Positions 4,211-61,506 of a stretch of 64,000 nucleotides of DNA are shown here, in pieces. Source of the DNA: Naegleria gruberi (Eukaryota); assembly GCA_000004985.1 (NCBI GenBank), contig GG738891.1; one strand, given 5' to 3'. The position numbers and the translations under genes were made by a program. Every line of letters begins with the position of its first letter. The stretch's first letter is position 1. The notes beneath the pieces were generated by a model. That model was not told the DNA's origin. It made no database searches and worked only from the letters and a program-made list of their open reading frames with translations.

Positions 4211-4501
4211 AACTAAATTCAAATCCCTTCTTTCATTCAAACCATCTTTACAACTGTGCAATCCTAATGCCAAGTGAATTTGTCTTTCCGCACTGATCGG
4301 ATCATGATCAACAGCAATCGAATAGGCAGTTTCCAATAATTTATCAGAAACCTTCATCACACCAGTTTGATAAAAGTATTCTTTCATAATTCCCTCGAAT
4401 GTAATGGAAGAATTGGAGGGTAATCTCTTTCCACAATTCAAAACCTCTTTAAAAGATTCGGAATTAAAAGCTCCGGAAGAAAATAAAGCTGCTTTCATCA
4501 T
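4211..4501 (-). CDS. vWA domain protein, exon 1 (97 aa N-terminal region).
   Basis: Real ATG at 4501-4499. A GTACGT donor is at 4210-4205. Splicing out the 48-nt intron (4210-4163) joins ...RRDLNLV to IVLDISGSM in phase 0 and reconstitutes a canonical vWA beta1 strand. Confidence 0.6.
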
Positions 4502-4671
4502 TTATTTTTTTGATTTCTGCAAGTTCAGTAAAATTGGATTTTACAATGGAAATTATCGGAAAACAATATATTATTCGAAACATTTCAGTTCTTAAGGCAA
4601 GTTTGATTTTTACAAGAATTTTGAAATAAGAAACAAGAAGAATTGAGGAAACTTTTTGTTACTGTAAATTA

Positions 4672-4690
4672 CCCGCTCATTTTTATTGAC
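4672..4690. repeat. Left terminal inverted repeat of the transposon.
   Basis: CCCGCTCATTTTTATTGAC matches the reverse complement of 7197-7215 with one indel. Confidence 0.6.
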
Positions 4691-4870
4691 GCTTGTTTTG
4701 ACGATTTTATAGTCATGAATGACGCCTTTGTTTATGCTTGTTAAGGTGTCATTGGGACGTTGTTGTGGACGTCAAAATGACGTTTTTTTTCGTCATTTTG
4801 ACGGTGTCAATTTGAGAGTCATTAAGACGTCAAAAAAAGCGTCCTCAATGACGTCTCAAAAAGTGTCTCC
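4686..4870. repeat. Subterminal GACG/TGACGTC repeat array, left end.
   Basis: At least 12 copies of (T)GACG or CGTCA within about 185 bp. Confidence 0.6.
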
Positions 4871-5309
4871 AATGACGTTGCAGAATGATTATTAATTTTT
4901 GATAAATTGAAATTTTATTGAACTATTCATAATTCTTACAAGTTGGAAATCCTTCATCTTGAACCATTTCACACTGAGTGAAACTCAATGCTGTGAAAGA
5001 TTCACACCGTGTGAATTAATATTGTAAAAGATTTCACACCATCAAAGATGACAAGGAAATTGACAAGAGTTTCTTATAAAAACGTGAAATAAAAATTTGA
5101 ATTGATATGTCTTGTAAATGAATTGAAATGATGTAATATAATTGATAACTGATACGACTTACTAGTATGTTGAGGTATTTTTTTTGAAAAATAGTTTAAA
5201 CTGGTTGCAAAAATAGAAAGTGTTTATTTTAGAGATGAAGCCAAATATGGAAAGACATTTAATATAATGTAAAGGCCATTTTGTGAATTGGTTTGAAGTG
5301 AAAAGAGCC

Positions 5310-6244
5310 NNNNNNNNNNNNNNNNNNNNNNNNNNNNNNNNNNNNNNNNNNNNNNNNNNNNNNNNNNNNNNNNNNNNNNNNNNNNNNNNNNNNNNNNNNN
5401 NNNNNNNNNNNNNNNNNNNNNNNNNNNNNNNNNNNNNNNNNNNNNNNNNNNNNNNNNNNNNNNNNNNNNNNNNNNNNNNNNNNNNNNNNNNNNNNNNNNN
5501 NNNNNNNNNNNNNNNNNNNNNNNNNNNNNNNNNNNNNNNNNNNNNNNNNNNNNNNNNNNNNNNNNNNNNNNNNNNNNNNNNNNNNNNNNNNNNNNNNNNN
5601 NNNNNNNNNNNNNNNNNNNNNNNNNNNNNNNNNNNNNNNNNNNNNNNNNNNNNNNNNNNNNNNNNNNNNNNNNNNNNNNNNNNNNNNNNNNNNNNNNNNN
5701 NNNNNNNNNNNNNNNNNNNNNNNNNNNNNNNNNNNNNNNNNNNNNNNNNNNNNNNNNNNNNNNNNNNNNNNNNNNNNNNNNNNNNNNNNNNNNNNNNNNN
5801 NNNNNNNNNNNNNNNNNNNNNNNNNNNNNNNNNNNNNNNNNNNNNNNNNNNNNNNNNNNNNNNNNNNNNNNNNNNNNNNNNNNNNNNNNNNNNNNNNNNN
5901 NNNNNNNNNNNNNNNNNNNNNNNNNNNNNNNNNNNNNNNNNNNNNNNNNNNNNNNNNNNNNNNNNNNNNNNNNNNNNNNNNNNNNNNNNNNNNNNNNNNN
6001 NNNNNNNNNNNNNNNNNNNNNNNNNNNNNNNNNNNNNNNNNNNNNNNNNNNNNNNNNNNNNNNNNNNNNNNNNNNNNNNNNNNNNNNNNNNNNNNNNNNN
6101 NNNNNNNNNNNNNNNNNNNNNNNNNNNNNNNNNNNNNNNNNNNNNNNNNNNNNNNNNNNNNNNNNNNNNNNNNNNNNNNNNNNNNNNNNNNNNNNNNNNN
6201 NNNNNNNNNNNNNNNNNNNNNNNNNNNNNNNNNNNNNNNNNNNN
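5310..6244. other. Assembly gap (935 N) inside the transposon.
   Basis: Run of n characters. The true element length is unknown. Confidence 0.99.
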
Positions 6245-6256
6245 CCAACCAATAAG

Positions 6257-6922
6257 ATGTCAACTAGAAAAAACAAATCTAAGGCAGCTGCTCCAAAGAG
6301 GAAGAATCAATCTGATGAAGATGAATCAAGTACTGATACAGATAATGATTCTGAACCAAGCAAGAAAAAACAATTTAAACCATCTTCCAGTAAACAACTA
6401 GTGAAGACAGTGAAGAAGACCATGTCAGTTCATGATTCAGATAGTGATGAATCCACCACTGAAGATTCAGAAAATGGTACTGGTGACTCCACAGAATCTG
6501 TCTATTTTCAAGTTCGTCACGTTAATGGAAAACGGGAATATGTGATTGTTCCAGAGCATGTCGATTACATCTTTGATTTGATAGATAAGGACAAAGCTTT
6601 TCCAGAGTTCATCAATGCCATTATCCAATGTGAAAAGGTATTAACTGACCTCACAAAAAGGTTTGCTCATCTATTTTCAGGGCTTGCATTCAACACTACC
6701 GTAAATGGTATAACTTATTCAATTCCTCCAGACATTATCAAAATGCTTATTGGTAATGTGACTCAAAAACAGTGCTTGGAATTGTTAGCACATCATCACT
6801 TCAAGAAACCTATAGGAGAACTCACAACTGATCAAAGAACAGTATGTAGAAAGTTCTTTGAAGCAAGGGGATGGGATAAAGAAAGTGTTCGGAAGGCAAT
6901 CAATAGTTTGATCAAAGAATAA
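6257..6922 (+). CDS. Transposon-internal ORF of 221 aa: a basic N-terminus (KNKSKAAAPKRKNQ) and an acidic tract, then a globular C-terminal part. Possibly an accessory or DNA-binding protein of the element, or the C-terminal part of a larger ORF lost in the gap.
   Basis: The ORF starts immediately after the N-run and lies between the TIRs. No DDE/DDD motif is visible in the sequenced part. Confidence 0.35.
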   Translation: MSTRKNKSKAAAPKRKNQSDEDESSTDTDNDSEPSKKKQFKPSSSKQLVKTVKKTMSVHDSDSDESTTEDSENGTGDSTESVYFQVRHVNGKREYVIVPEHVDYIFDLIDKDKAFPEFINAIIQCEKVLTDLTKRFAHLFSGLAFNTTVNGITYSIPPDIIKMLIGNVTQKQCLELLAHHHFKKPIGELTTDQRTVCRKFFEARGWDKESVRKAINSLIKE

Positions 6923-7140
6923 TTTCCAGACATGATGTTAAGCTTGATAGTCAAGCTTGTGAAATTTGTATTTTTTTTTTTAAAATTTTCAAAAAAATTC
7001 ACAAGTCTGAAATACGTCACCTCCTCCTTCACTGATTTTCATCATCAAAACAACACAAAACAAACAACAACAAATAAACAACACATTACAACATCAAGTA
7101 GAACACAACAGAATATCGATAATTAACTTTGGAGTAACTT

Positions 7141-7200
7141 TATGCAAAATCGTCAGCGATGACGTCAAAAAAAGCGTCAATCCACCATCAGGAATGACGA
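7141..7200. repeat. Subterminal GACG repeat array, right end.
   Basis: cgtcagcgatgacgtcaaaaaaagcgtcaa...aatgacga. Confidence 0.55.
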
Positions 7201-7215
7201 AATAAAATGAGCGGG
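7197..7215. repeat. Right terminal inverted repeat of the transposon.
   Basis: CGAAATAAAATGAGCGGG is the reverse complement of the left end. Confidence 0.6.
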
Positions 7216-7232
7216 TTAATTGGTGAAAAATT

Positions 7233-7249
7233 AAAGAGCAGAAAAAAAT
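7233..7249. repeat. 17-bp direct repeat AAAGAGCAGAAAAAAAT, copy 1.
   Basis: Identical to 7514-7530. Confidence 0.7.
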
Positions 7250-7513
7250 TTAAACGTTTATTAATCGTATGAACCCGACGGGTTCGTCTTGATGATATTA
7301 CGAATATTAAATAATAAATTCTTTCTTGTTGGGATTGCTTTGTTCATTTCTTGTAACTCTGTGGACACAAATACTTGGCTTGAACACCCTATGCTGGAAC
7401 CCCGGGTAGTATAGGGTACGGTGACTTAACCCGACGTAAGTATTGCGGCAACACACTGTGGTCTCAGGGTCAACAGTGTAGTTACTGGGTGGTACGACAT
7501 TTTTTTTGAGACG
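7250..7513 (+). other. 264-bp GC-rich insertion bracketed by the 17-bp direct repeats. Candidate small structured RNA gene or SINE-like retroposon.
   Basis: Local GC is well above the flanks. Contains the palindrome GAACCCGACGGGTTC and ends in T8 (cattttttttgagacg). Confidence 0.35.
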
Positions 7514-7530
7514 AAAGAGCAGAAAAAAAT
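7514..7530. repeat. 17-bp direct repeat, copy 2. It ends in the ATG of the downstream peptidase gene.
   Basis: Identical 17-mer; the final AT plus the following G form the start codon at 7529-7531. Confidence 0.7.
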
Positions 7531-8851
7531 GGGTAAATTCGAAACTCTGAAAACTGAAAGCATTCACTCACTGCAAAGCAAGGGACTATTTAGATTCGTC
7601 ATCATCGTGATGATGAGTTTAATTATGTTTTGTTCGAATATTGTTATCGGAAAACAATATATTATTCGAAACGTGCCATACTTTTCACAACAAACAGAAT
7701 ATTCGTGTGGAGCTACCAGTTTACAGATGGCACTTTCGTATTTTGATGGAAATTTTCATAGACAAATGAAAGAAGAGTCATTGTTAAAGGAAACAGTTTC
7801 GTTTCGAATAATTTCTCAAGAATCAATTGTAGATGTTGCTAGAACTTCCAATCATACAGGAACATGTTCATTAGACGTCATTAGAAGTGCCAGATTCTCC
7901 ACCATTAGTTCAACACCAATTTCTCAATATTATTTACAATATCCGAAACAAGCTCCGATGAACGGATGGTTTGGAATTGAGAATTCCCATAATTTATTGA
8001 ACAAATCTTTGGATTCAATTTACTATTTTGGAGGATTAATGACCATATACTATCCAGAAAGAGGTTCTTATTTGAAATCTGAAAAATGTTCTGAAAAGAA
8101 GGGAGGAGAAGGAAATGTCAAATGTTGGGTAAAAGAAATGATTGAATCCTTTTTGAAATTTGACATTCCTGTCATTTGTTTAATGTTTTATGATTTGAAT
8201 GATAGTGAAGGACATTACCGATTGGCAGTTGGTTACGAAACTAAACTAGACGAAAGTGGAAATGAAATTCCAACACATATTATTATGTGGGATCCTTACA
8301 ATCGAGAAGGAAATCCTCCAATTTCTAATTTTACAATTTCAGAATTTTGTAATTTGTGGAATTATACAGAATTGAGATTTGAGAATACTTGTTATAGACC
8401 TTATTTTGGAGCTGTCATGTATCCATTGGATATTAAGGCAATGGTTAGTAGAGAGGGACATTTGATGGTTGAGTATGGACATCCGAAACACTTGGTTTCG
8501 TCTGATTTTGTTTCGAAACATGTGGAAAAGACACTAGTGATAGACAATGTGGTGGCCAAGATTCGTATTTATCAAACGATTCCTAATCAAGAAGATATTT
8601 TGAAAGAAGTGGAAAGTGTTGATTTGCAAATGAATCCTTCCAGATTGAATTTTGGACAAAATCTTTCATTTTCTTGGAAATTACCATCAAATCTCTTATT
8701 GGAAAAGAATATTCGAATCAAAATTGGAATTTATGGATTAGTTTGTGATAAAACCTTAACTTGGCTCTATGAACCAAACACGGACAAGTTTAGTCAATCG
8801 TACAAATATTGCGATCAAGTTGGAGGAACAATTTTCATTAAAACAGATTAA
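7529..8851 (+). CDS. Membrane-anchored peptidase-C39-like (papain-fold) domain protein.
   Basis: N-terminal hydrophobic anchor (LFRFVIIVMMSLIMFCSNIVIG). The motif VPYFSQQTEYSCGATSLQMALSYFDG matches the C39-like Q...CG..SL.M.L.Y.G catalytic-Cys region, and EGHYRLAVGYE matches the His motif. Single 440-aa ORF. Confidence 0.6.
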   Translation: MGKFETLKTESIHSLQSKGLFRFVIIVMMSLIMFCSNIVIGKQYIIRNVPYFSQQTEYSCGATSLQMALSYFDGNFHRQMKEESLLKETVSFRIISQESIVDVARTSNHTGTCSLDVIRSARFSTISSTPISQYYLQYPKQAPMNGWFGIENSHNLLNKSLDSIYYFGGLMTIYYPERGSYLKSEKCSEKKGGEGNVKCWVKEMIESFLKFDIPVICLMFYDLNDSEGHYRLAVGYETKLDESGNEIPTHIIMWDPYNREGNPPISNFTISEFCNLWNYTELRFENTCYRPYFGAVMYPLDIKAMVSREGHLMVEYGHPKHLVSSDFVSKHVEKTLVIDNVVAKIRIYQTIPNQEDILKEVESVDLQMNPSRLNFGQNLSFSWKLPSNLLLEKNIRIKIGIYGLVCDKTLTWLYEPNTDKFSQSYKYCDQVGGTIFIKTD

Positions 8852-13325: not shown

Positions 13326-16300
13326 TTATTCAAATACCAATCTCAAATCAATTTGCACTGCAGATGGAATTTCTTCTTCCTTCTTCTTCTTTCTGAATAA
13401 TTTTCTAACAGATTCCGATGAAAAATTGGACAAGACCGATATGAAGGAATGTCTAGAATTTGTTGTTGAGTTTCCATCATCATCATCACCTCCTCCTCTG
13501 CCTACGCCTTTGCCTCCTCTCACAACAGTCACTGCTCCTTCTGAATTATGATCATCACCATCATCATTATCATGACTAATTGTGATGTTGTTGCTATGAT
13601 TTGAATGTGTATCCTCCTCTCCCCTTGTTGAAGGAGTTTCTCTTGGAGTTGGTGGAAGATAAATTGTTTCTCCCTCCACAATAGGATGATCTTCATTATA
13701 TATTATTGTTGTTGTACTCGTATTATTAATAGTATTATTTAAATTAATGATAGGAACAACAGGATGAGGATGAGGATTAAAAGGCTCGATATGAAGATGA
13801 GGTTTTTCATCATCACCATTATCACTTTCTACATCGACATCAATTGCTGTTGTCATTGAAAGTGCTCTTCTTCTTCTATTCCGATGATGACGAAGAATGC
13901 TCGATTTACCACAACAATAACAACACCACCAACAGCAACAACAAAACTGCAGGCAAGGAATGGCTAGACAACATAATTCTCCATAGAAACAATAGTAGGC
14001 ATAGCAACCAATTGTTACAGAGCAACACAAAACCATAGCACCAACCACCACAGCAATGATAATGCCTATTAACATACTCTGATCATCTATATAAATCTTC
14101 TTTTGGACAATGAAGAGATTGAGTGTGGAGGAGACAAGATTGGTCATGTTGAAAGTGACAGAACATTTGCAGGTTGCCATTGTTGAATTGATAATTGTAA
14201 CTATGCAATTTGGATTATCTTCGATGGATAGTGTACTGATTGAGATTGAGGCACATGAATATGATGTATTGACCTCTTTGAAGAACAATTGACCCAAATT
14301 ACTGTCATCTTGAGTAGTAGTAGTATTCTCTAGCAGTGGAATATGGAATTCCAAGTCAATTATGGAAGATGATTTCAATAAGGCAACATCCAAATCACCA
14401 AAACCAAAAGCAATAATTTTAGATTGGAGAGAGGACTTTCTTCTAACTTTCTCAGAGAGAGTTTCTACTTTTGAGGCTAAATAATCACCAATGGAGAATA
14501 TATCATCCACCACAAGGAATGCTTGAAGGAATGGTTTGCTGGAATGTGTGGCCTTAATAGTATTATTTAACTGTACTTTGACACTTGTCAATGTTGAAGG
14601 TTCTATCAACAGCTGATGATTCGAATAGTCGTATAACCACACCAGTTCCATCACTCTTCTATAGAATGCTGCCTTCTTAAAGACTTTTGTTCTTGTCTTT
14701 GGTTGACTTCTGGCTTCTAGATGGGAGGTAAACTTGAGAGTTGTAAATAATTGTTGTGCATTTGAAGCTTGTTTGGTAAAGAATCGTTTCTCAAGGATGA
14801 ATTGGAAGGCAGAATCAATGACAGAGTCCAAACAAAAGTCAACACCCACTGGAAGTTTCAAGCTTTCATCAGCAATCACCTTAACAAGATATTTGACAAG
14901 TTGGGATAGAGCTTCTGATACTGTATTTGTATCAAGATGTTTGAAGTTATACAGAATCGAGTCTACAGTAAATGCAGCTATGGAAATGAGTTGATTATCC
15001 ATCATTATTTCTGTACCATTTGCTAACATTCTCAATAGTTGTAGATTCTTGTTTTGATATTCTGCAAAATCCTTGATGGTATTTTCACAAGCAACCCCAA
15101 CAAAACCTTCCCTACACATACAGGTATCCTTTTTCAAAATTCCACCATTCTTACATGTGAGACTTCTTGTCAATGACCTAGTATTTTCATATATTGAAAT
15201 TGGTTCAATTTTTGTGATGGCTCTATTCAGAAGGGCAGTAGAAGTTCTAGATATGGCTGCTGATTGATAGAGTGATCCCAATAGCGACTCTTCTTTTGCC
15301 TGTTTAATCCATTGTTGAGCTAAAACTTGTACTTGTGAAAAGGTTGAATATGAGCGAGTTTGAATGCTTACATTCATTGATTCTATAGTTGATGCTTGTG
15401 TGGCTGTATTGATTACCTCAAAGAAACATGTAACTGTCTCACCAATGAATGCTGTAGGAAGTTGTTTCGAATAGCCAACATCAATATTATGCATGTAAAT
15501 TTTTACACCAGACCTATCATCAATGAAACCATATCTGTAATCTAAATGATCTTCTTCACTTTTACAATTCATGCAAATGAATTCAAATTCTGTTTCTACT
15601 GCAAAACCATTCAAAGGAGTAATGGTACAATAACACATTGGAGGAGGGGAGGCAACACTGAAACTGTACTGAATCAATGAAGCAACATTTGCATTTGGAT
15701 CATAAGCTGACAGAGTAATAATATTATTGGAGCCAGCATTTAACAAACTTGGATCAATATTAATGTAATCTGAACTTGTGGAACCAACAATAACATTATT
15801 AACAATTACCGTATAATTGGTAATTAAAGATGTTCCAGGAATGAGAGAGGTCTGTAATGTTAGAGTATCACTAACAAGAAAGTATTCCTTCTTTGGGTAA
15901 ACATTAATAATGTTAATTATTGGTGGAATATACGTAAAATGGATAGTAGTCGATTTATGAATACTTCTTCCATCAGATTTAGTAACTTTAAGATCTAGTT
16001 CTAGTGATAGTGGAGGAACGGGGAAAAGAGCTGCATCAATTTTGAAGTTCGTTGACTTTTCTGAGGATAGTACTGAGAGAAACTCTAATAAGAGCTCATT
16101 GACGTTATTGTCCAAGCATGTCCATTCCCACACTTCTGTAGAGTATGCGTTGTAAACCATTTCAGGATCTGTATAATCTACATTAATTATGGTATAATTG
16201 GGTTGTGCATCAAAAGTAATTAAGTTCAAGTATAGATCTGGAGGTTTGGTGATTAAGGTTACAACTGAAACATCTTTGATGTTAGGATTGGATGGATAGT

Positions 16301-19300
16301 AGACAGATACTTGGAATTTATAGATCTGGTAACCAAATGTTTCTAAAGAGACGTAGAGGTCAGAGTATTTATCCATACTGTATCTGATTTTTGGTCCACT
16401 CAATTGAGTCCATTCAATGATTGAATTTTCTGATTTGCATGAAGATTCTGACACTATTTTCTTGATGGTAATAGGAAATTGAGTAGTTACTTTTTCAATA
16501 GTTGTTTGTGGAACATATAATGCTGGAAGAGGGCTTTCTGCTTTTGAAAATATGGAAGAATATACAGTTGAGCTATTTACAATATTTCCCACCACAAGAG
16601 AAACTAAATATTTTCCTTGTGGAAGGGTTGAATCTAGCTTAATTAATGGAGTATTGGGGAAATTGAATGGAATAATTTGGAACACATGGTCTGTCTCATT
16701 GAACAAGGTCCAGTAATAGTCAAGTGGTGTATTATTTGGAGATATACTGAGCGAGCCATCAATGATAATCTCATCACAGGAGCTATAGAATTCTGAGAGT
16801 AGATTTATGGATGCTGTTGGAGCGATAACTTTTTCATTTTCACACCAAATGCCATAATATCCATTCTCACATTGGCATTGATTGTAATCTATGCATACAC
16901 CTCTTCCAGAACAAACATTAGAATCATTCGAAAGTAGAGAATCACATCGTGTCAACTCACAATTCACACCAACATGATTACTGGTGCATGTACAATTATC
17001 AAAGCTTGAACAATTACCACGATTTGAACACACCAAAGGATTGGTATTATTCAGACCGAAACAAGAGTATTGTTCACAACTTTCACCGAAATAGCCGTCA
17101 GAGCATTGGCAAGTATCCAAATCAATGCAATTACCCTTTCCAGAGCAAACAGTTTCTTTTTCACTTGATGAAATGTTGAAACATGTGGTCAACTCACAAT
17201 TAGCTCCATGATACTTTTCTCCACATGTACAATTATTGTAGGATGAGCAAAATCCTCTACCAGAACAAACCTTTGAATCGGCATGCTCTGTTCCATTACA
17301 ATCAAAATAATTACATAGATCTCCATAAGTTCCTAATTGACAAGAGCACTTATTCACATCAATACATTGGCCATTTCCAGAACACACTGTCGAGTTGTCT
17401 TTTTCAATACCAAAGCATGAAAATTCTTTACATTCCACACCAGTATATCCTGAACGACATTTACAATCATCAAAATCAACACATTCACCTCTTCCTGAAC
17501 AAACATTTTGAGTTTCATTGCTCAAAACACCAAAACAACTTGTCACTGAACAATCTAATCCGAAATAATGTGATACACATTCGCACTCATCTGTTTCAGT
17601 ACAACTTCCGTGCCCAGAGCAAACTCTGGAATCAGTTCTATTCATTCCATAACAAGAATAATATTGGCAGTTGTCTCCGTAATATCCTTCAGAACAATTG
17701 CATTGATTGAATCGATAGCAATTTCCTTTTCCAGAGCAAACTTGAGGATTTGATGAAGATACATTGAAACACACATAAGATTCACATTCTTCTCCATGAT
17801 ATCCATGCTCACATGAGCAATTATTAGGAGAAACGCATTGACCATGACCTGAACAAGCCAATGGTTCTGAATGTTGCACATTAAAACATGAGAAATTGTC
17901 ACATTCCTTTCCATAGTAACCAGATACACATGTGCAATTATCAAAATCAACACATTCACCTCTTCCAGAACAAACACTTGAAGAATTGGAAAGTTTGGAG
18001 AAGCAAGTAGTGATGGAACAGTTCAAATCCATATAGTTCTCATCACATTGGCATTGATCCAAGCTGGAACAAGTTCCTCTTCCAGAACAAACATTGGAAT
18101 CTGAAGAATTGAATCCAAAACATGTGTAAAGTTCACAAAATTCACCAAAATATCCATATTCACATTGGCAATTATTAAATGTTTCACATGAACCATGCTT
18201 GGAACAAACTGAGCTATTGGAAGATGAAATTCCATCACAAGTAGTTTCTTGACAGAATGAACCAAAGTAATGTTCTACACATTCGCATGTGTCATGTTGC
18301 TTGCATTCACCACGTCCATTACAAACTCTTGAATCATTACTTAATAATCCCTCACAGGATGTCACTTGACATTTATCACCCCACCAATTGTTTGAGCAGT
18401 GACATGTATCGGGTCCAACACATATTCCATTTCCAGAACATGATATGTTTAAAGTTTTCGATTCATTAAAACATGAAAATTCGTCACAATTTGATCCAAA
18501 ATAATCAATTTCACATTGACATAAATTAAAATCAATGCATTGACCATGTGAGGAACAAACTAGATTGGTTTGATTCGATGGGATGGAAGCACAGGTGGTG
18601 AGTTGACATTCTTCTCCGAAATAGTTTGGTAGACAAAAGCATTCGTCAAGTTTCGAACAATTTCCTCTTCCAGAACAAACACTTTTGGTTTCAGTATGAT
18701 TAATTCCAAAGCAAGCATAATTTTCACAATCCATGCCTGAATAACCATTCTCACATTCGCAAATTTCAGATTTTAAGCATTTTCCGTGTTTGGAACAAAC
18801 TGAACTATTTAAATGCTCAATTCCATTACAATAAAATTCTTCACAATTTGATCCAAAATAACCAGTATTACAAGTGCAATTGTTAAAATCATTACAGTTA
18901 CCATTTTTGGTACAAACAGTCGAGTCATTTGACATTATTCCAAAACAAGAGGTTACGTCACATGCCAATCCAAAGTAATTTTCTTGACATTCACAATTTC
19001 CAAAATCTGAACAATTTCCTCTTCCTGAACAAACTAACACATCATTTTGAGTAATATTGTTACATGTGTAATATTGACATTCATCACCAAAATATCCAAA
19101 TTTACAAGAACAAGTATTGTAATCAATACATTTTCCTTTTCCAGAACAAGCTCGTGAACTGGAAGATATTTCAGCACCACAACTTGTCAATTGACAATAA
19201 TCTCCAAAATAGTGAGCTTGACATTTACAATTATTGTAAGAAGTACAATTTCCTTTTTGGGAACAAACAACAGAAGAATTGGTATTGTTAATGCCATTAC

Positions 19301-22300
19301 AAGTATAATATTGGCATTCTTCTCCGAAATATCCATCATTACAACGACATGAATTGTAATCAATACATTGGCCGTTAGAGGAACAAGCAGTTTCGTTTTG
19401 GTTGGAATATTCGAAACATTCGAATATCTCACAATTGAAGCCCCTGTAATTAAGCGAGCAGTTACATTGATTGTAATCAATGCAATTACCCTTTGATGAG
19501 CAGACTGTTGAATTTAGAGATGATACTGAGCTACATGTGGTCAACTCACAATTTTTTCCAAAATAATTTTCTTCACAAGTACAATTATCGAAACTTGAGC
19601 ATTTTCCTCGAGAAGAGCAAACTTTAAAATCGACATTTGATATTCCATGACATGAAAAATATTGACATTCGTCTCCAGAATATTCATCATTTTCACAAGC
19701 GCAATTATTAAAGGAAGTACATTTGCCGAAACCAGAACAAACTGAAGAGTTATAAGATTCAATTCCATTACAAGTGGTAATTTCACAACTCAATCCAAAA
19801 TAATTCATTTCACATTGACAGGTGTCAAAATCAACACAAGCTCCATAACCAGTACAAACCAAACTGTCATTACTCAATATTCCATTACAACTTGTCACTT
19901 GACACATTGATCCAAACATATTTTCCTTACATTCACAAGTATTTACATCAAGACATTTGCCACGACCAGAACATGACAAGTTGGAGAATTTGGAAATTTC
20001 AAAACAATTGAAATTTTCACATGAATCTCCATAATAATCAGCTGTGCAATTACAAGTATTGTAATCTATACATGTTCCCTTTGATGAGCAAACAGAACTT
20101 TCATTGGATTGAATATTATTACAAGTGGTCAATTCGCAATTATTTCCAAAATAGGAATCAATACAGGTGCAATTATCAAAACTCGAACATTTTCCTTTTG
20201 AAGAACAAACAGATTCCAAAGTATTGTTCACATTGAAACAAGTATAAAATTGACAATCATTTCCAAAGTATCCTTCGTCACATTCGCAATTCTCAAAACT
20301 TTTACAATGACCTCTTGATGAGCAAACTGAGGAATTGTAATGTTCAATGCCATTACAGTTAAATAATTCACAATTGGTTCCATAATATCCTTCATTGCAT
20401 TCGCAGAAATCAAAATCTGTGCAATTTCCTTTTCCAGAACAAACATTAGTTTCGTTTGAAAGTGTTGAATTACAACTGGTCAATTGACATTCATCTCCTA
20501 AATAATTAAGGAAACATGAACAATTATTTGTTGAATAGCATTCTCCACGTGAATGACAAACAGATGAGTTGATATTCAAAATGTCAAAACATTTGAATTC
20601 AGAACAATCAGAACCAAATGAATTTTCAAAACATTGACAGGTGTCAAATTGTGAACAAACTCCATTTCCAGAACATGTCAAATCTGTTACATTGGATGGA
20701 ACTCCAAAACATACAGTAACTTGGCAGAATTGACCAAAATAATTTTCAGTGCAATTACAACTATCTGTTTCAATACAATTACCACGTCCTGAACAAACAA
20801 TTGATTCATTACTCAATGTTCCATTACATTTGTATAATGAACAGTCAGCTCCGTAAGCATCTGGTTGACATTGACAGGAATTCACATCAGAACATTTGCC
20901 TCTGCCAGAACAAACTAATTGTGATTGATTTGAAGGAATGGAAAAACAATCAGTCACTTGACAATAATCTCCATAATATCCATCTCTGCATGAACATTGA
21001 TTTGGTGATAGACATTCTCCTCTTCCAGAACAAGTAATTGTTTCATTACTAAAAATGGAATTACATATTGTAACTGAACAATTCAGTCCAAAGTAATTAA
21101 AATCACATTCACACAAATCTGTTTCTGAACAAATACCATGTCCAGAACAAACCAAAGATTCACTATTATTCAAACCAAAGCAAGTGTGGAATTGACAATT
21201 CTCTCCATAATATCCCTCAGAACAATTACAATGATTGTAAGAAGAACAATCACCTTTTCCAGAACAAACACTGTTATTGGTCATATCAAGTCCAAAACAA
21301 GATGTTCTCTCACAAAATTCACCATAGTATCCATCCGTACAATTACAAATATCTTTTGCAACACAATTTCCATTGGAATTACAAACACTTGTCAAATTAC
21401 CAAAAGTTCCATTACATTTGGATATGGAACAATCCTCACCAAATGCATCTGGAAGACAAATACATGAATCTATATCTGAACAATTGCCTCTTCCTGAACA
21501 AACTGTAGAGTCCAAGTTGAGTGTGCCAAGACATGAGAATTGAGAACAAGTTATTCCTGAATAACCTGGTTTACAAGTACAATTATTGAAAGAAGAACAT
21601 AAACCGTGAGAGGAGCATACTTGAGTGAAATTGGAAACAATATTTTCACAAGTCGTGAGCTGGCAGAATGGACCAAAATAATTTGCCGTGCAATTACAGA
21701 TATCTGGATTAATACACGAGCCACTTCCGCTACAAACAAGGGAATCATTACTTGGAATACCATTGCACAATGTAAATTCACAATTTGTTCCATAAATTTG
21801 AGAATTATTGCAATGACAATTGTTAACATCTGAACAAACGCCCCTTGAGGAACAAACTGATGAGGAATTTCTGTTAAATCCAAAGCAATCATATTCTTGA
21901 CAGTCAGATCCATAGTATCCTTCCTCACATTCACAATTATTGTATTGAGTACAATTACCGCGACCTGAACAAACAATTGTGGAATTTGAAACGATATTTG
22001 AACACGTTGTGAACTGACACCATTCACCAAAGTAATGTTTGGAACAGTTGCAAACTTTGAAATCGGTACAAATACCATTCTTTGAACAGACTAATGAATC
22101 ATTTGCAGTAATATTGTTACAATATGGAATTTCACAATTCAATCCAGTATAACCATATTTGGAATCACAATTACAATTATTATATGAATCACAACTTCCA
22201 TGTCTACTACAAACACGTTGATCATTAGATCCAAAACCATAACATGTTGTAAAATCACAAAAAGTTCCAGCATAATTCAAGTCACATTCACAAACGTCCA

Positions 22301-25300
22301 TGTCAACACATTTTCCAAAATTATTACAAACAAGAGATGAGTTTGAAGAGATCGAATCACAAGTAGTAAATTCACAATTCGATCCAAAATATCCTTCTCT
22401 ACATTCACATCTATTGTACTCTGAACAGATTCCTCGGCCACTACATACAGACCTATTATTCGAATCCACTCGGTCACAAGTTGTAAGTTCACACCAATCA
22501 CCGAAATAATTCTGAGAGCAGTTACAATAATTTGGACCATAGCAAGTACCCCTGGAATTACAAACTCTTGAATCATTGCTCATCGTTCCATTACAATATG
22601 TCAATTCGCATTCTAATCCAAAACTAAACTCATTACACTCACACTTATTGTAATCAACACATTTGCCATTTTTTGAACAAGTTTCATTGGAATTAAAAAC
22701 TCCAAAACATGAAAATTCGCTGCAATTAAACCCAAAGTATCCATAACTGCATTCACAGGTATCGTATGCAGTACATTTACCCTTTCCATTACAAACTTGA
22801 GAATGTTGTGAATCAACTCCATAACAACTGGTCAACTCACAAAAGGAGCCCCAATAGTACGGTTCTATACAAGAGCACACATCAGGATTAGAACAGTTGC
22901 CTCTACCAACATCAGTACACTTTCCAATTAGTCCATTACATATTGGAATATCACAATCTGAGCCACCATAACCTAAAGTCTCATTACATGTGCAATTATT
23001 GAAATTTTCACACAATCCTCTCAAATTACAAACCAATGGTGAAGTGTTTTCAATGAGATTACATGTTGTAAATTGACACCACTCTCCATAATGACCCTCT
23101 TCACATGAACAAACATCGGTTTTTGTGCATTTTCCATGACCATTACAAACAAGAGTTTCATTTCCCAAAGTGCCATTACAATACAATACTGAACAATCAA
23201 CTCCAAAAGTGTCTGGTCTACAAGAGCAGGTATTGAAATCTGTACAATTTCCATTTCCAGAACAAACAGTTGGAGAGTTTGGAAGCAAATCAAAACATGT
23301 GAATAAATTGCAGTCCTCTCTGACATATGGTTGTAAAGGGTCAAAGGTTGATGGTTGACTGAATTTTGCTTGTTTCAAAATTAAATAACCACCTTCTGTA
23401 CAGGTTGACCAAATAGCTCCTTGAATATTATCTGAAACTATGAAATCGTGTCCATATCTTGCAATTACAGTTCCATGAACATTTCCAGAAAAGGTATTTC
23501 CATGAATTGCTGGATTGTAAACCCAATTTGCATTTCCAGAGCTGAAATAATAAGTCAACCAAAAAACATTTCTATAGGTAGCACATTTCAGATAGGTAAA
23601 ATCGGCGCCAAAATAGTGTACGAAAGGAAGCTTAAAGACCACTGGTTCAATTCCTACAATTGTAAACTTTTGGCCATTGATTGTCCATCCATTTTCCATG
23701 CAATAGACACCTCCTCTGTTGATGATAATGTTTCTACCCATGTCAGTGTCTGGATTTTTTATCATGTAATCACAAGGAAGGGCCAGAAGCTCCTGCATCT
23801 TATTAGAAACTTGTTGAACTAATTCTAAACCGTAATTTTCTGAACTGTTTGTAACTATAGCACTTCCATTGGCAACATAGGGATAAACTGGATCTGGATA
23901 AACATAATTTGGAGGATTAATGACGAATGAAGGTATTGCAATACTAGCAGAAAGTGGCGCGTTATCCAAACTATTCTTAACTAAAACTATTGGAATGTTG
24001 GAGATTAATTTATAACCAGCAAATATATCATTTTCGCACAAGGTTCCAGAAAAGCCAGCACTACAAGTACATTGATCAAATGCATAGCAACGTCCTCTTC
24101 CAGAACAAACTGAACTATTCGTATTTTCAATGCCGAAACATGAAGTAAATTGGCAGAAAGTTCCATAATAATTTTGAGAACAGGAGCAATTATTTGGAGC
24201 AAAACAAGCACCTCTTCCAGGTGCAGTACAAATTCCTACCAAATTATTACAAATAGGAATATCACAATTAGGTCCGCCAAATCCCATTTCTGTCCTACAT
24301 GTACAATTATCGAAATAGTCACAAATTCCACTACTGTTACAAACAAGAGGTGAATATTTGGAAACTCCTGCACATGTTGTAAACTCACAAAAAGTTCCAT
24401 TGTGTCCAAAGTCACATTGACATGTATCCTTGGCCACACATCGTCCGTGTCCACTACAAACATTTGAAACATTACTAAGAATTCCATTACAAAAGGAAAG
24501 TGAGCATTGAGGACCATAACTATCTGAATTACATATACAGGTGTCAAAATCTACACATTTACCCCTTCCAGAACATGTCATATTTGAAGTTGACACAATG
24601 CCATAACAATTCACACGAGAACAGAAAGTTCCATCATAATACGAATCTTGTGGATTAAATGTTATAGGTGCTGACAGTTTTACATCTTTAAAATTGAGAT
24701 TTCCTTTAGAATTTGGTGAATGAATCATCAAAGATCCTTGTATGTCACCTGTAACTGTCAAATCAGCATTGCTATTTGCGATCATTGTTCCTTGAACAGT
24801 TCCAGAAATAGTTAAATTAGAGTTTGCATCAGTGGATAGGAAGAGTAAATTTCTATAAGTTGCGCACTCAAGATATGAAACCTTGGATCCAATATAATTA
24901 AAATACGGAGCTTTAAAGACAACTTGTTCAGTACCTATTATGGTTAAAGACATTTTGTTAATTGTCCATCCTTGCTTCAAGCAATAAACCATTCCACCTC
25001 TAATAGTGATGCTAGTAGTCAATTCCAAGTCTGGATTAGTAACATTAACTGTACATGGTAATGCTATTAATTCAGTTACTTTTTTTGTTAATTCTTGAGA
25101 AAGAATTTGTCCGCTAGATGTTGTAGTATTCTTAATGACTGCATCTCCATTCGAAACATATTGGAATTGATACTTTTCTGTAACCATTAGTGGAATTGCA
25201 ATACTGGCCAATAGATATGAATTGGATCTTGAGTTTTTTACCAAATTTAGTTTCTTATTGGTGATGAGTTTGTATCCAGCAAAAAGATCATTTTGACAGT

Positions 25301-28300
25301 TAGTGCCAGAGAAACCTGCTCTACAAGAGCATGTATTGTAATCTGTACAATAACCATGTCCACTACAAACCATCGAATCATTGGAAATAAGCCCAAAACA
25401 AGTAGTCAACTCACAATTCACACCCAAATATCGTGAAGATGAGCATGTACAAGTATTAGCATTCGAACAAGTTCCTCTTCTCGAACAAACATTAGGATTT
25501 GAAGCATTCAAACCGAAACACATGGAAACATTGCACCAAGTTCCAGTAAATTTCGAATAATCAGCGCAAGTGCAATTATTGAAAGGCCAACAAGTTCCAT
25601 GCCCACCACAAACTAATGAAGAATTTGAAGATGAAATGGAAGCACAAGTTGTTTGATTGCAATTTGGTCCAAAATAATTGGATTTACAGGAACAAGTGTC
25701 AGTTGCCAAACAACTTCCCAATCCATTGCAAGTTTGTGTGGAATTACTCCAAATGCCAAAGCATTTCTGAATGGAACAATTCGTTCCATAATATCCATCG
25801 TAACATTTACATGTGTCAATAGCAGAACAAACACCTTTTCCACTACAAACATTTGTTGAATTTTTGAGAATTCCAAAACATTTGTAAATTTCACAATTAC
25901 TTCCAGAATATCCTGTCTTACAAGTACAATTGTTGTAATCAATGCATTTACCAAATCCTGAACAAGTTAGTGAATTATTTGATTCAATTCCACCACAAGT
26001 TGTCAAATCACAGAATTGACCATGATAACGTTGTGAACAGTTACAAACATCTGGATAGATACATGAACCATGAGTATTACAAACTGATGAAAGAGAAGCC
26101 TTTGTTCTATTGCAAATAGGAATTTCACAATCTAATCCAGTATAACCAAACTCTGAACTGCAATTACAATTATTGTAAACTTGACAAGAACCTCTTTCTC
26201 TACAAGCCAAGGAAGAATTTGATGAAACACCATTACATGTGGTTAGCTCACAGAATTTTCCGTAATAATGAGCATTACACTCACAAATGTCTTTGGCAGA
26301 ACAAATTCCTCTACCAGAACAAACAGTTGATATGTTACTGAAAATTCCATCACATTTAGATATGGAACAATCACTTCCATAGGCATCCTCTGAGCATACA
26401 CAAGTGTTATAATCTATGCATTGTCCTCTTCCATGACATGTACTATTTAAATTTGAAGAAACATTATAGCAAGAAGTGTAATTACAAAAATCTCCGATAT
26501 ACTTTTCATGAGTATCAAAAGTTAATGGTACAGCAAGAGAAACTTCATGTAAAATTGAGGTAGAGCTTCCTGTTACCCATAATTGACCATCAAACGGTCC
26601 TATTACCGTCATTGATCCAGAATAATTGGGAATGTACGTTCCAAGAATTGGTGGTAAATAATTTGTCAACTTGTTTCCTCCTTCAATCACAGTGGAACCA
26701 CCAATTATCCAGAAAAAGTTTCTATGGGATGCACATTCCAGTAGCAATATGTTTGCATTAGTAATTGTAAGAGACTGAACTTTGAAAATCACTAGTTCAG
26801 TACCAATAATTACAATTCTTTGGGACGAGTTGATTGTCCAAGTGAAATCAAAACAAAATACCCCAGATTTTCTAACAACAAGTTCTTTAGGTATTTGTGA
26901 TGAGCTGGTAAATCGTTGAGTGCAGGCCATTGCTATCAAGCTAGTTCTTTTTCTCTTCATTTTTTGAATAATCACATTTGACAGCGAGATAGAACTTTTA
27001 GTCATGGTTGCCTTTCCCTTGGATTTTAAAGTAATTCCGGTACTACTCATAGAACCATAAATAATACTTGATCCAAAGTACCTAGTTAAGCTGTTTACAA
27101 CTGGCTGATAATAGTTGTTCGAATATTCAATTTCGAATACACCTGGAGTATCAGAAATGAGACCATACCCAGCAAACATATCATACATGAATCTTTCACA
27201 ATAGATTCCATCATATTCGTCCTGACAAGAGCATGTTTCGTACAAATTACAAGCTCCATGTCCATTACAAACAAACGAATCATTCGAAGCAGTTTGGTTA
27301 CAAGTTGTCAGTTGACACCAATCACCATAATAATGATCATTACATAAACAGCTATTAGGGGATGTACACTTTCCGTGTGAGCTACAAACATTCGAATTAT
27401 CGCTATAAGTTCCATTACAAATTGTAATCTGACAATTCAATCCAAAATAATTTGGAATACAGGAACAAGTATTTGGGGCCATGCATGAACCTTTAGAAGA
27501 ACAAGTTGAATTCAACAAGCTAGATACTCCATTGCAATCATACTTATTACAAATTGTATCGTAATAACCTGATTTACATGTACAAGTTTCGAATGCAGTA
27601 CAAGTACCATGTGAGGAACAAACGGCCGTGTTATTCGATTCAGTTCCATTACAAGTAGTTACCTCACAATTAACACCATAGTAATGTTCTTTGCAGTGAC
27701 ATGTATTTGGTTCTGTGCAGTTACCTCTACCTGAGCAGACTTTCGAATCAGTGGCAGGTTTAGAATAACAAACAGGGATTTGACATTCAGATCCAGTATA
27801 TCCCTTTAGAGGATTACAAACACAAGTATTATAAGGCCAACAAGTACCCCTTTCATTACAAACGGTGGTGTTTGTGGAATTAATTCCAAAACATGTTGTA
27901 AATTGACATTTGAAGCTTTCGTAATTTGGTTTACAGACACAGGTGTCAGTATCTACACATGTGCCTTCTCCGCTACAAACATGTGATACATCATTACTTA
28001 AATACCCATAACACTTGGAAATTGAGCAATCATTTCCATAATATCCATCTCTACATTTACAATTATTGTAATCTAAACATTCACCTCTTCCAGAGCAAGT
28101 TGTGTTTGAATTTCTATTGATTCCATAACAATTAAATTCTTGACAATTATTTCCGTAATAGTTCGTCTTACAATCGCACTTTTCAAAGGCAGAACAAGAA
28201 CCATGAGATGAACAAACAGTTGAATTTGTTGAATTAATTTCTGAACATGTTGTCACTTGACATAGATCACCAAAGTAATGATCTGAACAATTACATACAG

Positions 28301-31300
28301 AAGGAGAGATGCAAGAACCATGTGCACTGCATACTGCACTACCAGTTGCCAAAATTCCTTTACAAATAGGAACTTGGCAATAGCTTCCTCCATATCCATA
28401 ATTGGAATTACAAGAACAGTTTTCATATTTGATGCATTGTCCTCTTCCACTGCAAACATCTGAAGAATTGCTGGAAATACCTCCACAAGTAGTCAATTCA
28501 CAGAAAGTTCCATAATAATTAGCATTACAAGAACAAGTATCTGGTCCTACACATTTTCCTCGAGTGGAGCAAACTGAAGATGTATTGCTATATGTGGAGT
28601 TACATAAGAACAAGGAGCAATCTAATCCAAAAGCACCTTCTAGACACTTGCATGTATCAATATCGACACAAACACCCTTTCCTGAACAAGTTGTATTTGA
28701 GTTGGATTTTTCATTGTAACATGTTGTAAAGTTACAAAAATCTCCAACTATTTGATCATAAGGATCAAATGTTATAGGAGCTGTAAACTTCACATTACTT
28801 AATTCTATCATCCCTAAATTCCAAATCTGACCTTCAACAAGACCACTAATTGGCAAATAGTCAACCGATGAAACAAGAGTTCCATACAGAGGACCCACAA
28901 CACGTGAAGTGAAATTCACAGACTTTCCTATGAACCAATAAACATTTCTAAATGACGAACATTCTAAATGAATCATTGAAACATTCTTATAATCAATACT
29001 TGGTGCTTTGAATACAATTGTCTCTGTACCAATTATTGTAATCTTTGTAGAAGAAACTGTTAAAGTTGAATTAAAGCAATAGACTCCTCCCTTTCTAATT
29101 ACCATAGAATTTGCAAAGAATGATAGAGAATTTGATATGTAATAGTTGCATCTCAATAGATTTAACTCTTGAACTTTTTCTTTCATTTGTCGAAGCAATT
29201 CTATACCAATTGGTTGACTTGTATTTGTAATGATAGCATTTCCATTAGAAATGTATTCGTATTGACCTTGAGAAACATTCATTGATGGTATAGCTATACT
29301 TGCCATCAAAGGGGAATTAGTTTGCAAGTTGATTTTTACATTGATTTTCGACTCACTGATTAATTTGTATCCAGCAAAGTAATCATGAATGAAAAGTTCA
29401 CAATTTGAACCATTATAACGAGTTACACATTCACAGATATCATAATCTAGACATTTTCCGTTTCCAGAACAAGCTAATGAAGAATTAGAAACCTCGCCAA
29501 AACATGTTGTCATTTCACACAAACTTCCCAAATAATTGCTATCACATGAACAGAGATCTGTAGAAGTACATGATCCGTGAGAGCTACATACAGAAGAAAC
29601 GTTGCTAAATACCCCGTTACATGTAGTTACTTCACAAGTATTTCCATAGAAATTTGTATTGCATTCACAAGTGTCTATATCAATACAATTTCCATTTTTG
29701 GAGCAAGATAAACCAGAGGCCATTCCTATTCCAAAGCAATCATATTCCTGACAAATCTTACCATAATAACCTTCCATGCATGAACAATTGTTAAAATCTG
29801 TGCATTCACCATGTCCAGAGCAAACCAAAGAATCATTTGAACTGATTCCATCGCATGTGGTCAACTCACATAAATTTCCAAAGTATGTGTCACTGCAATT
29901 ACAATAATCCAGCAATACACAATTTCCTCTATGGTTACACACCGTTTCATTGGTAGATATTATACCTTTGCAATATGTAAGTTCACATGAAAATCCCTCA
30001 AACCCTTCAAAACAAGTACAATTCTCAGCCATCGCACAAATTCCATTTCCATTACAAACAGTTGTGTCATTTGACAATACTCCACCACACAAGGTTTCAG
30101 AGCATGTCTCACCAAAATAGTTCAATTCGCAAAGGCAACTGTTTGTACTATGGCAAGAACCTCTTCCAGAGCAAACAGAACTGTCATTACTCGAAATACC
30201 ATTACAATAGGAAATTTCACACATCGCTCCCTCATATCCTTCTTCACATTGACAAGAATCAATATCTAAGCATTGACCCCTTCCAGAACAAACTTTACTA
30301 TTGTTCAAAGATAAACCGAAACAATTAAAAATTTCACATTCTTGTCCATAGTATCCTTGGGCACATTCACAATAATTGAAAGAAGAACAACTTCCTCTCA
30401 TGGAACAAACTGATGTAGAGTTGGATTCTAATCCAAAACACGTGGTTGATTGACAGAATTCTCCATAATAATTATCTGTACAATTGCAAATATTAACATC
30501 AATACATTGACCTCTTTCTGGTTGAGTGCAATAACCAACCAATCCATTGCACGTTGGAATATCACAATTGGATCCTCCATAAAGAAATGATGCATCACAA
30601 GAGCAATTATTAAATTTCTCACATGAACCTCTTTGATTACAGGCATTTGGTGATAAATTTGAAATACCATCACAAGTTCTGAATTGACACCAAGTACCAT
30701 TATTTCCATATTCACAAAGACAAGTATCTGTAGAGATACATTGACCATTTCCACTGCATGCATTCGATTCATTTCCAAGTACTCCATTACATTTGGAAAT
30801 AGAACAATCGTGTCCATAACTTTCTGAAGGACACAAGCATGCGTCCAAGCCAACACATAATCCCCTTCCTCCACAAACGCTCGCCTCACTCGATAACACT
30901 CCAAAACAATAGGTACTTAAGCATTGTGCAGTAATATAGGTATCATATGGATTGAAAGTTATTGGCGGACTAAACACGAGATCAAAAACAATCAATTGAG
31001 TTCCTCCGACATACCAGATTGCTCCTTGGACATTGTGGTAAACCTCCAAGCTGTAATAAGGAGAGGCTCCTATCACTGTACCATGAATTGTTCCTGTGAA
31101 AAAGTTGCCATTCAATCCTCTATCAAATGTCAACCAGAAAAAGTTTCTGTAAGAGGCACATTCCAAGTAATAGAAAGTGGCTCCATAGTAGTAGACAAAA
31201 GGAGTTTTGATTACAACAGGTTCTGTACCAATCACTACAAAAGTATAAGATGAATCTATGGCCAATCCATTTGGAAAACAATACACTCCTCCATGTTTGA

Positions 31301-35222: not shown

Positions 35223-35295
35223 GTACCCTTGGCTCAATTGGAAGAGCATCGGCCTACGGAGCCGGGGGTTGTGGGTTCGAGTCCCACAGGGTATA
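35223..35295 (+). tRNA. tRNA-Arg (anticodon ACG), 73 nt, no intron.
   Basis: Cloverleaf by hand. Acceptor GTACCCT/AGGGTAT (G-U at 1:72). D-arm GCTC-AATTGGAA-GAGC. Anticodon arm TCGGC-CTACGGA-GCCGG, the same loop as known eukaryotic Arg-ACG. T-arm GTGGG-TTCGAGT-CCCAC. Discriminator A. Confidence 0.85.
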
Positions 35296-60873: not shown

Positions 60874-61506
60874 ATGGCAAAATTACTCCTCGCTCTACTA
60901 ATCATTGTAATCTCCCTAGTAGCTTTATTAAGCGTGGATAATGTTGTGGAGGCAATTGTTTGCCAACAAAATTTTGAATATCCATTGTATAAACAATGCG
61001 GCCAGCCATGGTCTAATGACTTGTTTGGTCGTAGCTCTATTTGTTATACTGGATCTTTGATTACATCAATGAGCATGGCTTTGAACGGTCGGAAGATATC
61101 TTCCATGAATCCTGGTCAATTAAATTCTTGGGCACATACAGCTCTTAAAGAATGGTTTGATAAGTGGAATGATGATGATAGAGCATTGGAAAATGCCTTA
61201 GTACATGGCTTGGAAAAGCTTGGCATGAAAAACACTAATTACTATCCGAATAATAATTGGATTGGAGAGATGGTTACTGATCTTTGCAAGGGAAAGGTTG
61301 TTCTTTTACAGGTTGCCAAAGATGACTATAACAAATACTGGACTCTGGCCACTGGTTTTGATGAGACAACATTCACTGTTAATAATCCAGCCTATTCCAA
61401 GACAGTTTTTAATGCAATGGAAGTTAAGAGTGCTGTTGTTTTCGAACAAATCAATCAAGAATTCATGAAATATTTTGATTGTCATGTTGAAATAGTTAAA
61501 TTGTAA
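60874..61506 (+). CDS. Small secreted protein of about 210 aa with a putative papain-fold (C39-like?) peptidase-like core.
   Basis: aaaaaaaATGgca start. Signal peptide MAKLLLALLIIVISLVALLSVDNVVEA. The motif Q-CGQPW...SSICYTGSLITSMSMAL loosely resembles the Cys-motif of the 7529 gene (SCGATSLQMAL). The His motif is not evident. Confidence 0.35.
   Translation: MAKLLLALLIIVISLVALLSVDNVVEAIVCQQNFEYPLYKQCGQPWSNDLFGRSSICYTGSLITSMSMALNGRKISSMNPGQLNSWAHTALKEWFDKWNDDDRALENALVHGLEKLGMKNTNYYPNNNWIGEMVTDLCKGKVVLLQVAKDDYNKYWTLATGFDETTFTVNNPAYSKTVFNAMEVKSAVVFEQINQEFMKYFDCHVEIVKL

Follow-up and report, generated by a model that had tools for sequence, protein, structure and literature searches.

The peptidases gathered in PF13529 (Peptidase_C39_2) are, taken as a whole, mainly prokaryotic. 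They have been described as single-domain peptidases of unknown specificity that stand alone and carry structural decorations (PMC10318531), and a further comparator, PeiR, is a lytic enzyme of a methanogen virus that acts as a pseudomurein endoisopeptidase (PMC6189367). Here we analyze a 64,000-nucleotide stretch of Naegleria gruberi DNA (the window; contig GG738891.1 of assembly GCA_000004985.1), in which a complete, single-exon open reading frame (ORF) at 7529..8851 on the plus strand, encoding 440 amino acids plus stop, had been read in a preliminary description as a bacterial-type C39-like peptidase domain in a eukaryotic membrane-anchored protein and as a candidate for horizontal gene transfer (HGT). 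We think it likely that this is a functional nuclear gene of N. gruberi, inherited vertically within Heterolobosea, which encodes a predicted secreted C39-like peptidase of a two-domain subfamily. As far as we found, this subfamily and its distribution appear undescribed.

The peptidase call had been based on two motifs, SQQTEYSCGATSLQMALSYFDG with Cys60 and EGHYRLAVGYE with His229, taken as the Cys and His signatures of the family, and on this point the preliminary description was right. HMMER against Pfam places PF13529 above its gathering threshold (35.9 bits against 24; E = 1.4e-8). The orthologs described below score 33–43 bits with the His half of the model matched as well, family members free of insertions cover model positions 2–143 of 143 at 52–68 bits, and the family profile matches C39 domains in the PDB at E ~1e-4. 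DUF3335 and PF03412 stayed below their Pfam thresholds for the N. gruberi protein (PF03412 at 13 bits against 22, E = 0.092), and an NCBIfam scan gave only sub-threshold matches to the PA2778 family. The domain spans residues ~44–300 (7658..8428, plus strand, as for all codons below) and contains heterolobosean insertions at ~73–96 and ~148–198.

Four residues make up the putative catalytic set. Gln54 (7688..7690), the putative oxyanion-hole residue, is near-invariant in an alignment of 38 sequences and is Q in 69 of 75 sequences in a second alignment, the remainder having a gap or E; Cys60 (7706..7708), the putative nucleophile, is near-invariant among the 38 and is C among the 75 wherever the column is covered. 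His229 (8213..8215), the putative general base, is H in 38/38 and 75/75, and Asp255 (8291..8293), the putative third member of the triad, lies in a DPW/DPY motif and is invariant in both alignments. An AlphaFold2 (AF2) model built from the 38 sequences (predicted local distance difference test [pLDDT] 88.6; predicted TM-score [pTM] 0.87), used in place of an unusable model from a 6-sequence alignment (pLDDT 52), has Cys60 at the N-terminus of a long helix (60–84) and His229 on a β-strand (225–240), as in a papain-like fold. A family-specific helix segment, DQRxIxDVxRTSxxxGTxSxDxxR, has G111 and R119 invariant and R105, T112 and D116 near-invariant among the 38 sequences. From the profile matches and the model, we conclude that the protein carries a predicted C39-like (PF13529) papain-fold domain with a full putative catalytic set.

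Two further regions flank this domain. Residues ~20–41 (LFRFVIIVMMSLIMFCSNIVIG; 7586..7651, plus strand) form a hydrophobic segment that may be a signal peptide or signal anchor: Kyte-Doolittle values over 19-residue windows peak there at 2.5, with no other part of the protein so hydrophobic, and AF2 places a helix at residues 18–35. The eukaryotic-style N-terminal anchor of the preliminary description stands as far as the hydrophobic signal goes; membrane anchoring is unproven, and classical short signal peptides are found on the orthologs. At the other end, residues ~301–440 (8429..8848, plus strand) are predicted by AF2 and structure comparison to form an all-β domain, a β-sandwich, which no Pfam model covers and for which Foldseek against the PDB returned only generic β-sandwich or immunoglobulin-like matches. 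The domain ends in Y425-x-Y427-C-D429-x-V-G-G, corresponding to a family motif Y-x-Y-x-D-x-[IV]-G-G, and D429 is invariant across the 38-sequence alignment.

The ORF is 100% identical over 440 amino acids to EFC40562.1 (synonyms NAEGRDRAFT_71499, XP_002673306.1 and D2VR86), annotated only as "predicted protein", and its ATG stands in the context gcagaaaaaaATGg. The window belongs to a 339,217-bp N. gruberi scaffold, the ORFs beside the peptidase gene are exact N. gruberi proteins, and six of the ten window ORFs looked up had exact matches among N. gruberi NEG-M proteins EFC40561-EFC40574; the neighbors encode EF-hand, fascin-like, RING/BTB/pentapeptide and VWA proteins. With a GC content of 0.329, and 0.272 at third codon positions (GC3), the gene falls among 12 other window ORFs (0.31–0.39 and 0.23–0.39, respectively), and its relative synonymous codon usage (RSCU) correlates with that of its pooled neighbors at 0.94. 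An independent environmental contig (L001), ~96% identical in DNA, carries the same gene with 14 synonymous and 8 non-synonymous differences; the ratio of non-synonymous to synonymous substitution rates (dN/dS) between the two is 0.14, and the gene is under purifying selection.

Orthologs with 41–45% identity were found in N. lovaniensis, N. fowleri and Willaertia magna, on contigs of 170–775 kb where the flanking genes encode kinases, RCC1, KH, F-box and similar proteins. Because composition and codon usage are host-like and the orthologs sit in eukaryotic gene surroundings on large contigs of Naegleria and Willaertia, we conclude that the peptidase gene is an ordinary resident gene of N. gruberi, as the preliminary description had held. 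Its host is a heterolobosean (Discoba), not an amoebozoan, and the reference to related amoebozoa in that description was mistaken. Willaertia has two identical copies of the gene and a divergent paralog, b, which branches outside Willaertia a plus Naegleria with 98–100 bootstrap support; the gene was already present and duplicated in the Naegleria/Willaertia common ancestor. The two identical copies (P0002 on JBEGDK010000067.1; loci L003 and L004) lie ~58 kb apart with the same F-box/RCC1/zf-A20 neighbors and stem either from recent segmental duplication or from duplication in the assembly. As for N. fowleri, its two models, KAF0979800.1 (405 amino acids, starting MDVARTSNH) and one of 463 amino acids (starting MALTYWDD), are probably truncated at the 5' end, since they lack the signal peptide and catalytic-Cys motif present in all other orthologs.

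Word-index searches (with the single protein and with profiles A1 and A2) had returned almost only Heterolobosea and suggested a lineage-restricted orphan, which an exhaustive HMMER profile search refuted. Among 1.84 billion representatives, that search turned up 197 relatives, of which 64 reached E≤1e-10; most have 340–400 residues and are matched from the signal peptide through the C-terminal motif. The best matches after Heterolobosea are eukaryote-type sequences, and the named eukaryotes among them include the dictyostelids Cavenderia fasciculata (as the C-terminal portion of a protein of 1,512 residues) and Tieghemostelium lacteum, Pelomyxa schiedti (Archamoebae) and Bolivina argentea (Foraminifera), besides the second Willaertia paralog. 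Two groups can be told apart outside Heterolobosea: clade A, comprising Pelomyxa, Bolivina and environmental eukaryotes, and clade B, of the dictyostelid type. One clade A member is eukaryotic, given that its contig carries G-alpha, BTB/BACK and SPRY genes, and another (L089) lies on a gene-sized contig ending in a run of A, which hints at a poly(A) end.

Prokaryotic members were sought with a single peptide pattern across 185,579 species, one genome apiece; 185 relatives came up, and no fewer than 33 of these possess the complete two-domain architecture. The full-length archaeal carriers are Methanothrix/Methanotrichaceae, Methanosarcinales, Thermoplasmata, many Bathyarchaeia, Hermodarchaeota and Promethearchaeota, the bacterial ones Lentisphaerae, Verrucomicrobiota, Desulfobacterota, Gammaproteobacteria and a bin labeled Kuenenia. 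None of the scanned prokaryotic genomes yielded a clade A-type sequence, though the pattern fits clade A proteins. Named among the family members besides the eukaryotes is one from a Promethearchaeota metagenome-assembled genome, on a contig that also encodes Arf/Ras GTPases, Rpb6 and a Hef-type helicase. At Bathyarchaeia loci L025-L038 the two-domain module sits within large multidomain secreted proteins of 700–1,200 residues; one type has an N-terminal WxxGG...GTHDWIAxHAL motif, in a region that resembles zinc phospholipase C/nuclease P1 as a candidate likeness, and others have β-propeller-like repeats and dockerin-like C-terminal ends.

Neighbor-joining (NJ) trees, bootstrapped and unrooted, were built with two distance measures on 329 and 288 trimmed columns. 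All prokaryotic members formed one clade apart from all eukaryote-type sequences (bootstrap 96 and 97), and Heterolobosea were monophyletic (bootstrap 100). The Asgard sequences joined Bathyarchaeia (bootstrap 100) inside the prokaryotic clade and not beside the eukaryotes. When group hidden Markov models (HMMs) were compared on the N. gruberi protein, clade A scored 220 bits, clade B 184 and prokaryotes 134. A Cys199/Cys274 pair was present in 27/27 sequences of Heterolobosea plus clade A and in 0/48 of clade B plus prokaryotes. The gene is older than the Naegleria/Willaertia split and belongs to a eukaryotic clade; nothing points to its having been acquired from bacteria recently or in Naegleria alone, and any interdomain transfer is ancient.

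Under the vertical reading, the N-terminal signal peptide or anchor would send the protein along the secretory or endolysosomal pathway, where the papain-fold domain would perform catalysis with Gln54 forming the oxyanion hole, Cys60 acting as the nucleophile, and His229 and Asp255 completing the set; the C-terminal β-sandwich probably packs on the catalytic domain or aids substrate binding. The subfamily is common to amoeboid eukaryotes of at least three supergroups and to mostly anaerobic archaea and bacteria, with the Naegleria protein placed among the eukaryotic members. Several points weigh against this reading. The PF13529 alignment of the N. gruberi protein is restricted to residues 48–87, the Cys half, because the heterolobosean insertions split the domain, and cleavage after G41 (predicted between IVIG41 and KQ) fits the −3/−1 rule, so a cleaved signal peptide and a membrane anchor are equally likely. 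Within ±10 kb, N. gruberi shares no local gene order with N. lovaniensis or Willaertia. Relationships within the eukaryotic part of the trees, which are NJ only, have bootstrap values below 40, and most clade A sequences are environmental, with eukaryotic origin shown directly for few. The literature held nothing specific on the accession numbers or on the family in eukaryotes, and no biochemical or expression data on any member; the activity, location and substrate of the N. gruberi protein are those predicted from its sequence.

Vertical inheritance within Heterolobosea leaves room for a deeper question, namely whether the gene came to eukaryotes by one or more ancient interdomain transfers from an archaeon or bacterium, or by inheritance from an archaeal ancestor, and survived only in amoeboid phagotrophs through differential loss or eukaryote-eukaryote transfer. 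This is compatible with the reading we prefer, and we hold the chances for and against it to be about even. The two-domain architecture is also that of Bathyarchaeia, Promethearchaeota, Hermodarchaeota, Methanothrix, Thermoplasmata, Lentisphaerae, Desulfobacterota and Gammaproteobacteria, which makes a very old transfer possible, and a eukaryotic distribution as patchy as Heterolobosea, Dictyostelia, Archamoebae and Foraminifera, taken with full-length prokaryotic homologs, implies either an ancient transfer between domains or common ancestry and massive loss. Clade B resembles the prokaryotes in being without the Cys199/Cys274 pair. However, a grouping of clade B with the prokaryotes has only 27–36% support in trees that are unrooted, the Asgard sequences stand with Bathyarchaeia among the prokaryotes, away from the eukaryotes, and the direction may have been the opposite one, from eukaryote to prokaryote.

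What the protein does can be narrowed by its context. It most likely works on its own, as a cysteine (iso)peptidase or amidase of the extracellular space or the lysosome, rather than as a transporter-coupled leader peptidase, given its predicted signal peptide, the absence of an ABC-transporter fusion and the finding that neighbor genes in the nine prokaryotic loci examined are unrelated and not conserved. As to substrate, we would guess at short peptides or cell-wall-type peptide cross-links of prey microbes. Speculatively, the targets of the enzyme would be cell-wall peptides of microbes or small acidic peptides, an idea prompted by several invariant arginines, the structural resemblance to PeiR, a weak fold similarity to a phage endolysin and the bacterivorous habit of the amoeba hosts. 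Direct support for a cell-wall substrate came neither from searches for phage homologs nor from the literature: tblastn against phage genomes gave no match, PHROGs held nothing for the Naegleria protein, and the BFVD viral search gave only weak matches, to a Gordonia phage endolysin and an uncharacterized mimivirus protein. One could go further and envision an ancient secreted hydrolase of Asgard archaea, Bathyarchaeia and amoeboid phagotrophs of three supergroups, kept by the eukaryotes for the digestion of prey as a bacteriolytic or archaeolytic cell-wall isopeptidase, with the eukaryotic clade derived from an early eukaryote or archaeal ancestor rather than from scattered recent transfers; we consider this unlikely.

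The resemblance to C39 domains also raises the question of whether the protein is a classical double-glycine leader peptidase of the ComA, LahT or PCAT1 type, which would process bacteriocin-like or Gly-Gly precursors. We judge this quite improbable, since PF03412 falls 9 bits short of its threshold, no ABC transporter is fused to the gene or lies next to it in the window or at the examined prokaryotic loci, and the protein has a predicted signal peptide of its own and an extra β-sandwich domain. To our knowledge, R105, G111, T112, D116, R119, R231 and D429 lie outside the C39 signature.

The claim that a bacterial PF13529 gene was gained by HGT in this lineage, recently or in Naegleria alone, fails as stated because the best matches are eukaryotic and broad. 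The preliminary description had itself named such hits as evidence that would overturn it, and they are what the exhaustive HMMER search returned. There is something to be said for the claim: the family as a whole is mainly prokaryotic, the one peptide pattern brought up 185 prokaryotic relatives, the gene has no intron, and only a handful of eukaryotic lineages were found to have it. Yet composition and codon usage, the comparison that the preliminary description had proposed, are host-like, and N. lovaniensis and N. fowleri have the gene, as do the two Willaertia paralog lineages. Its nearest relatives outside Heterolobosea are eukaryotic, and the prokaryote HMM scores 86 bits under the eukaryote HMM. 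The phylogeny and the taxonomic distribution, likewise suggested at the outset, put Naegleria with the eukaryotes and not nested among prokaryotes, since 33/33 full-length matches from prokaryotic genomes fall in the separate clade (bootstrap 96–97); relatives in Dictyostelia and Pelomyxa add to the heterolobosean orthologs. Recent or Naegleria-restricted transfer is therefore very improbable. It is barely credible that the protein is a pseudo-peptidase that binds without catalyzing, or that the gene is a contaminant or assembly artefact, as nothing speaks for it in the case of ORF 7529-8851, the four catalytic residues are conserved in every lineage, the gene is under purifying selection, and it sits between genuine N. 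gruberi genes inside a 339-kb scaffold and recurs on an independent environmental contig.

By itself the gene is of modest interest, being already annotated as a "predicted protein" and placed in PF13529 by Pfam-based annotation, and its orthologs are already named "Peptidase C39-like domain-containing protein" by Pfam-based pipelines. Its wider value lies in a conserved, predicted secreted two-domain peptidase subfamily with an unusual spread over Heterolobosea with the pathogen N. fowleri, Dictyostelia, Archamoebae, Foraminifera, Asgard archaea, Bathyarchaeia, methanogens and anaerobic bacteria. Should microbial cell-wall peptides prove to be the substrate, the enzyme would count as a hydrolase linked to phagotrophy and might mark ancient gene flow between domains. 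More generally, calling a domain "bacterial-type" without a family-level phylogeny is no evidence of HGT, as this case shows.

A second ORF in the window (60874..61506, plus strand) encodes EFC40573.1, a small protein of 210 amino acids with a signal peptide, in which the preliminary description had seen a weaker version of the Cys motif. The ORF exists, its PF13529 match is marginal (25.2 bits, threshold 24, E=2.7e-5), and the Gln/Cys half of the motif is shared, BLASTP pairing DYNKYWTLATGFDE with DYGGHYKVIIGYDE; the catalytic His is absent, Tyr or Trp taking its position, and the protein falls outside the subfamily of the main one. We rejected it as a paralog of the main gene, for hhalign gives a probability of 9% for a relationship to the main family and the subfamily HMM has no match to it at E≤10. 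Being without the catalytic His, EFC40573.1 may be a non-catalytic relative of the pseudo-peptidase kind.

Upstream of the peptidase gene, the window differs from the ~96%-identical environmental contig L001 by two insertions. The first, a 2.55-kb segment at 4669-7218, is missing from L001, where positions 1-378 correspond to window 4292-4671 and positions 376-409 to window 7216-7249. Its termini are imperfect inverted repeats (4666-4703 against 7163-7221; CCCGCTCATTTT... / ...AAAATGAGCGGG), GACGTCAAAAAAAGCGTC repeats occur subterminally, and a 3-bp TTA appears to be duplicated at the target. The segment is very AT-rich (GC 0.20) and holds ORF 6257-6922 (EFC40561), whose 90% cluster contains a second N. 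gruberi protein, EFC35873. Pfam found no transposase domain in it; the segment resembles a DNA transposon that integrated ~300 bp ahead of the peptidase gene. The second insertion, ~264 bp at 7250-7513, directly precedes the start codon and is strain-polymorphic. A perfect 17-bp direct repeat, AAAGAGCAGAAAAAAAT (7233-7249 and 7514-7530), borders it on both sides. The insertion is richer in GC than the DNA around it, ends in T8, and has no further copy within the window; possibly it is a small retroposon or an element resembling a short interspersed element (SINE) that displaced the original promoter region. A noncoding RNA in the GC-richer patch at 7270-7510 was considered and rejected, there being no Rfam match and a folding z of −0.5, and the patch being part of the strain-polymorphic insertion.

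Elsewhere in the window, EFC40564 (10272-11870, plus strand) joins a RING finger and a BTB domain to pentapeptide repeats at its C-terminus; the combination is unusual for a eukaryote, and repeats of this type are mostly bacterial. On the minus strand, 13326-32750 is an uninterrupted ORF of 6,474 codons consisting almost entirely of EGF and teneurin-type EGF repeats (PF07974, PF25024 and PF23106, with E down to 1e-160), predicted to encode a giant extracellular repeat protein. Two tRNA genes lie on the plus strand, tRNA-Arg(ACG) at 35223-35295 and tRNA-Leu(CAA) at 37180-37260.

Returning to the known systems, the structures most similar to the AF2 model of the N. gruberi protein are 22oc, "P210 CD lyase" (14.9), 5xe8, the ComA peptidase domain (14.7), 6mpz, LahT (14.3), 3erv, a putative C39-like peptidase (14.3), 2btw, Alr0975 (14.2), and 8z4h, PeiR (14.2, with 27% identity), followed by PCAT1, AvrRpt2 and staphopain. 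The clan CA members among the comparators, namely the phytochelatin-synthase-like Alr0975 (2btw), AvrRpt2 (C70, 6hqz), the papain-like CdiA-CT toxins (8ssm) and staphopain, differ from our protein in family, substrate and context; the N. gruberi gene has no toxin-immunity context around it. PeiR shows a weak, non-significant profile match to the subfamily (E=0.079), its accessory domains differ, and the searches made gave no evidence linking the Naegleria protein to pseudomurein or peptidoglycan. The ABC-exporter domains of MEROPS C39/PF03412 (ComA 5xe8, LahT 6mpz and PCAT1 8vp3) share the fold with a protein that is sub-threshold for their model, that is neither fused to nor beside an ABC transporter, and that has a predicted signal peptide and an extra C-terminal domain. 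The closest likeness is to PF13529, as represented by 3erv of Bacillus anthracis: the two arrange Gln, Cys, His and Asp alike, relatives align over the full model, and, like the members described in PMC10318531, the N. gruberi protein is a stand-alone, decorated enzyme by prediction and not a transporter domain. Unlike PF13529 at large, its subfamily has a conserved C-terminal β-sandwich with the Y-x-Y-x-D-x-[IV]-G-G end, the DQRxIxDVxRTSxxxGTxSxDxxR segment and, in the heterolobosean proteins, two large insertions and extra cysteines, and it occurs in amoeboid eukaryotes and archaea.

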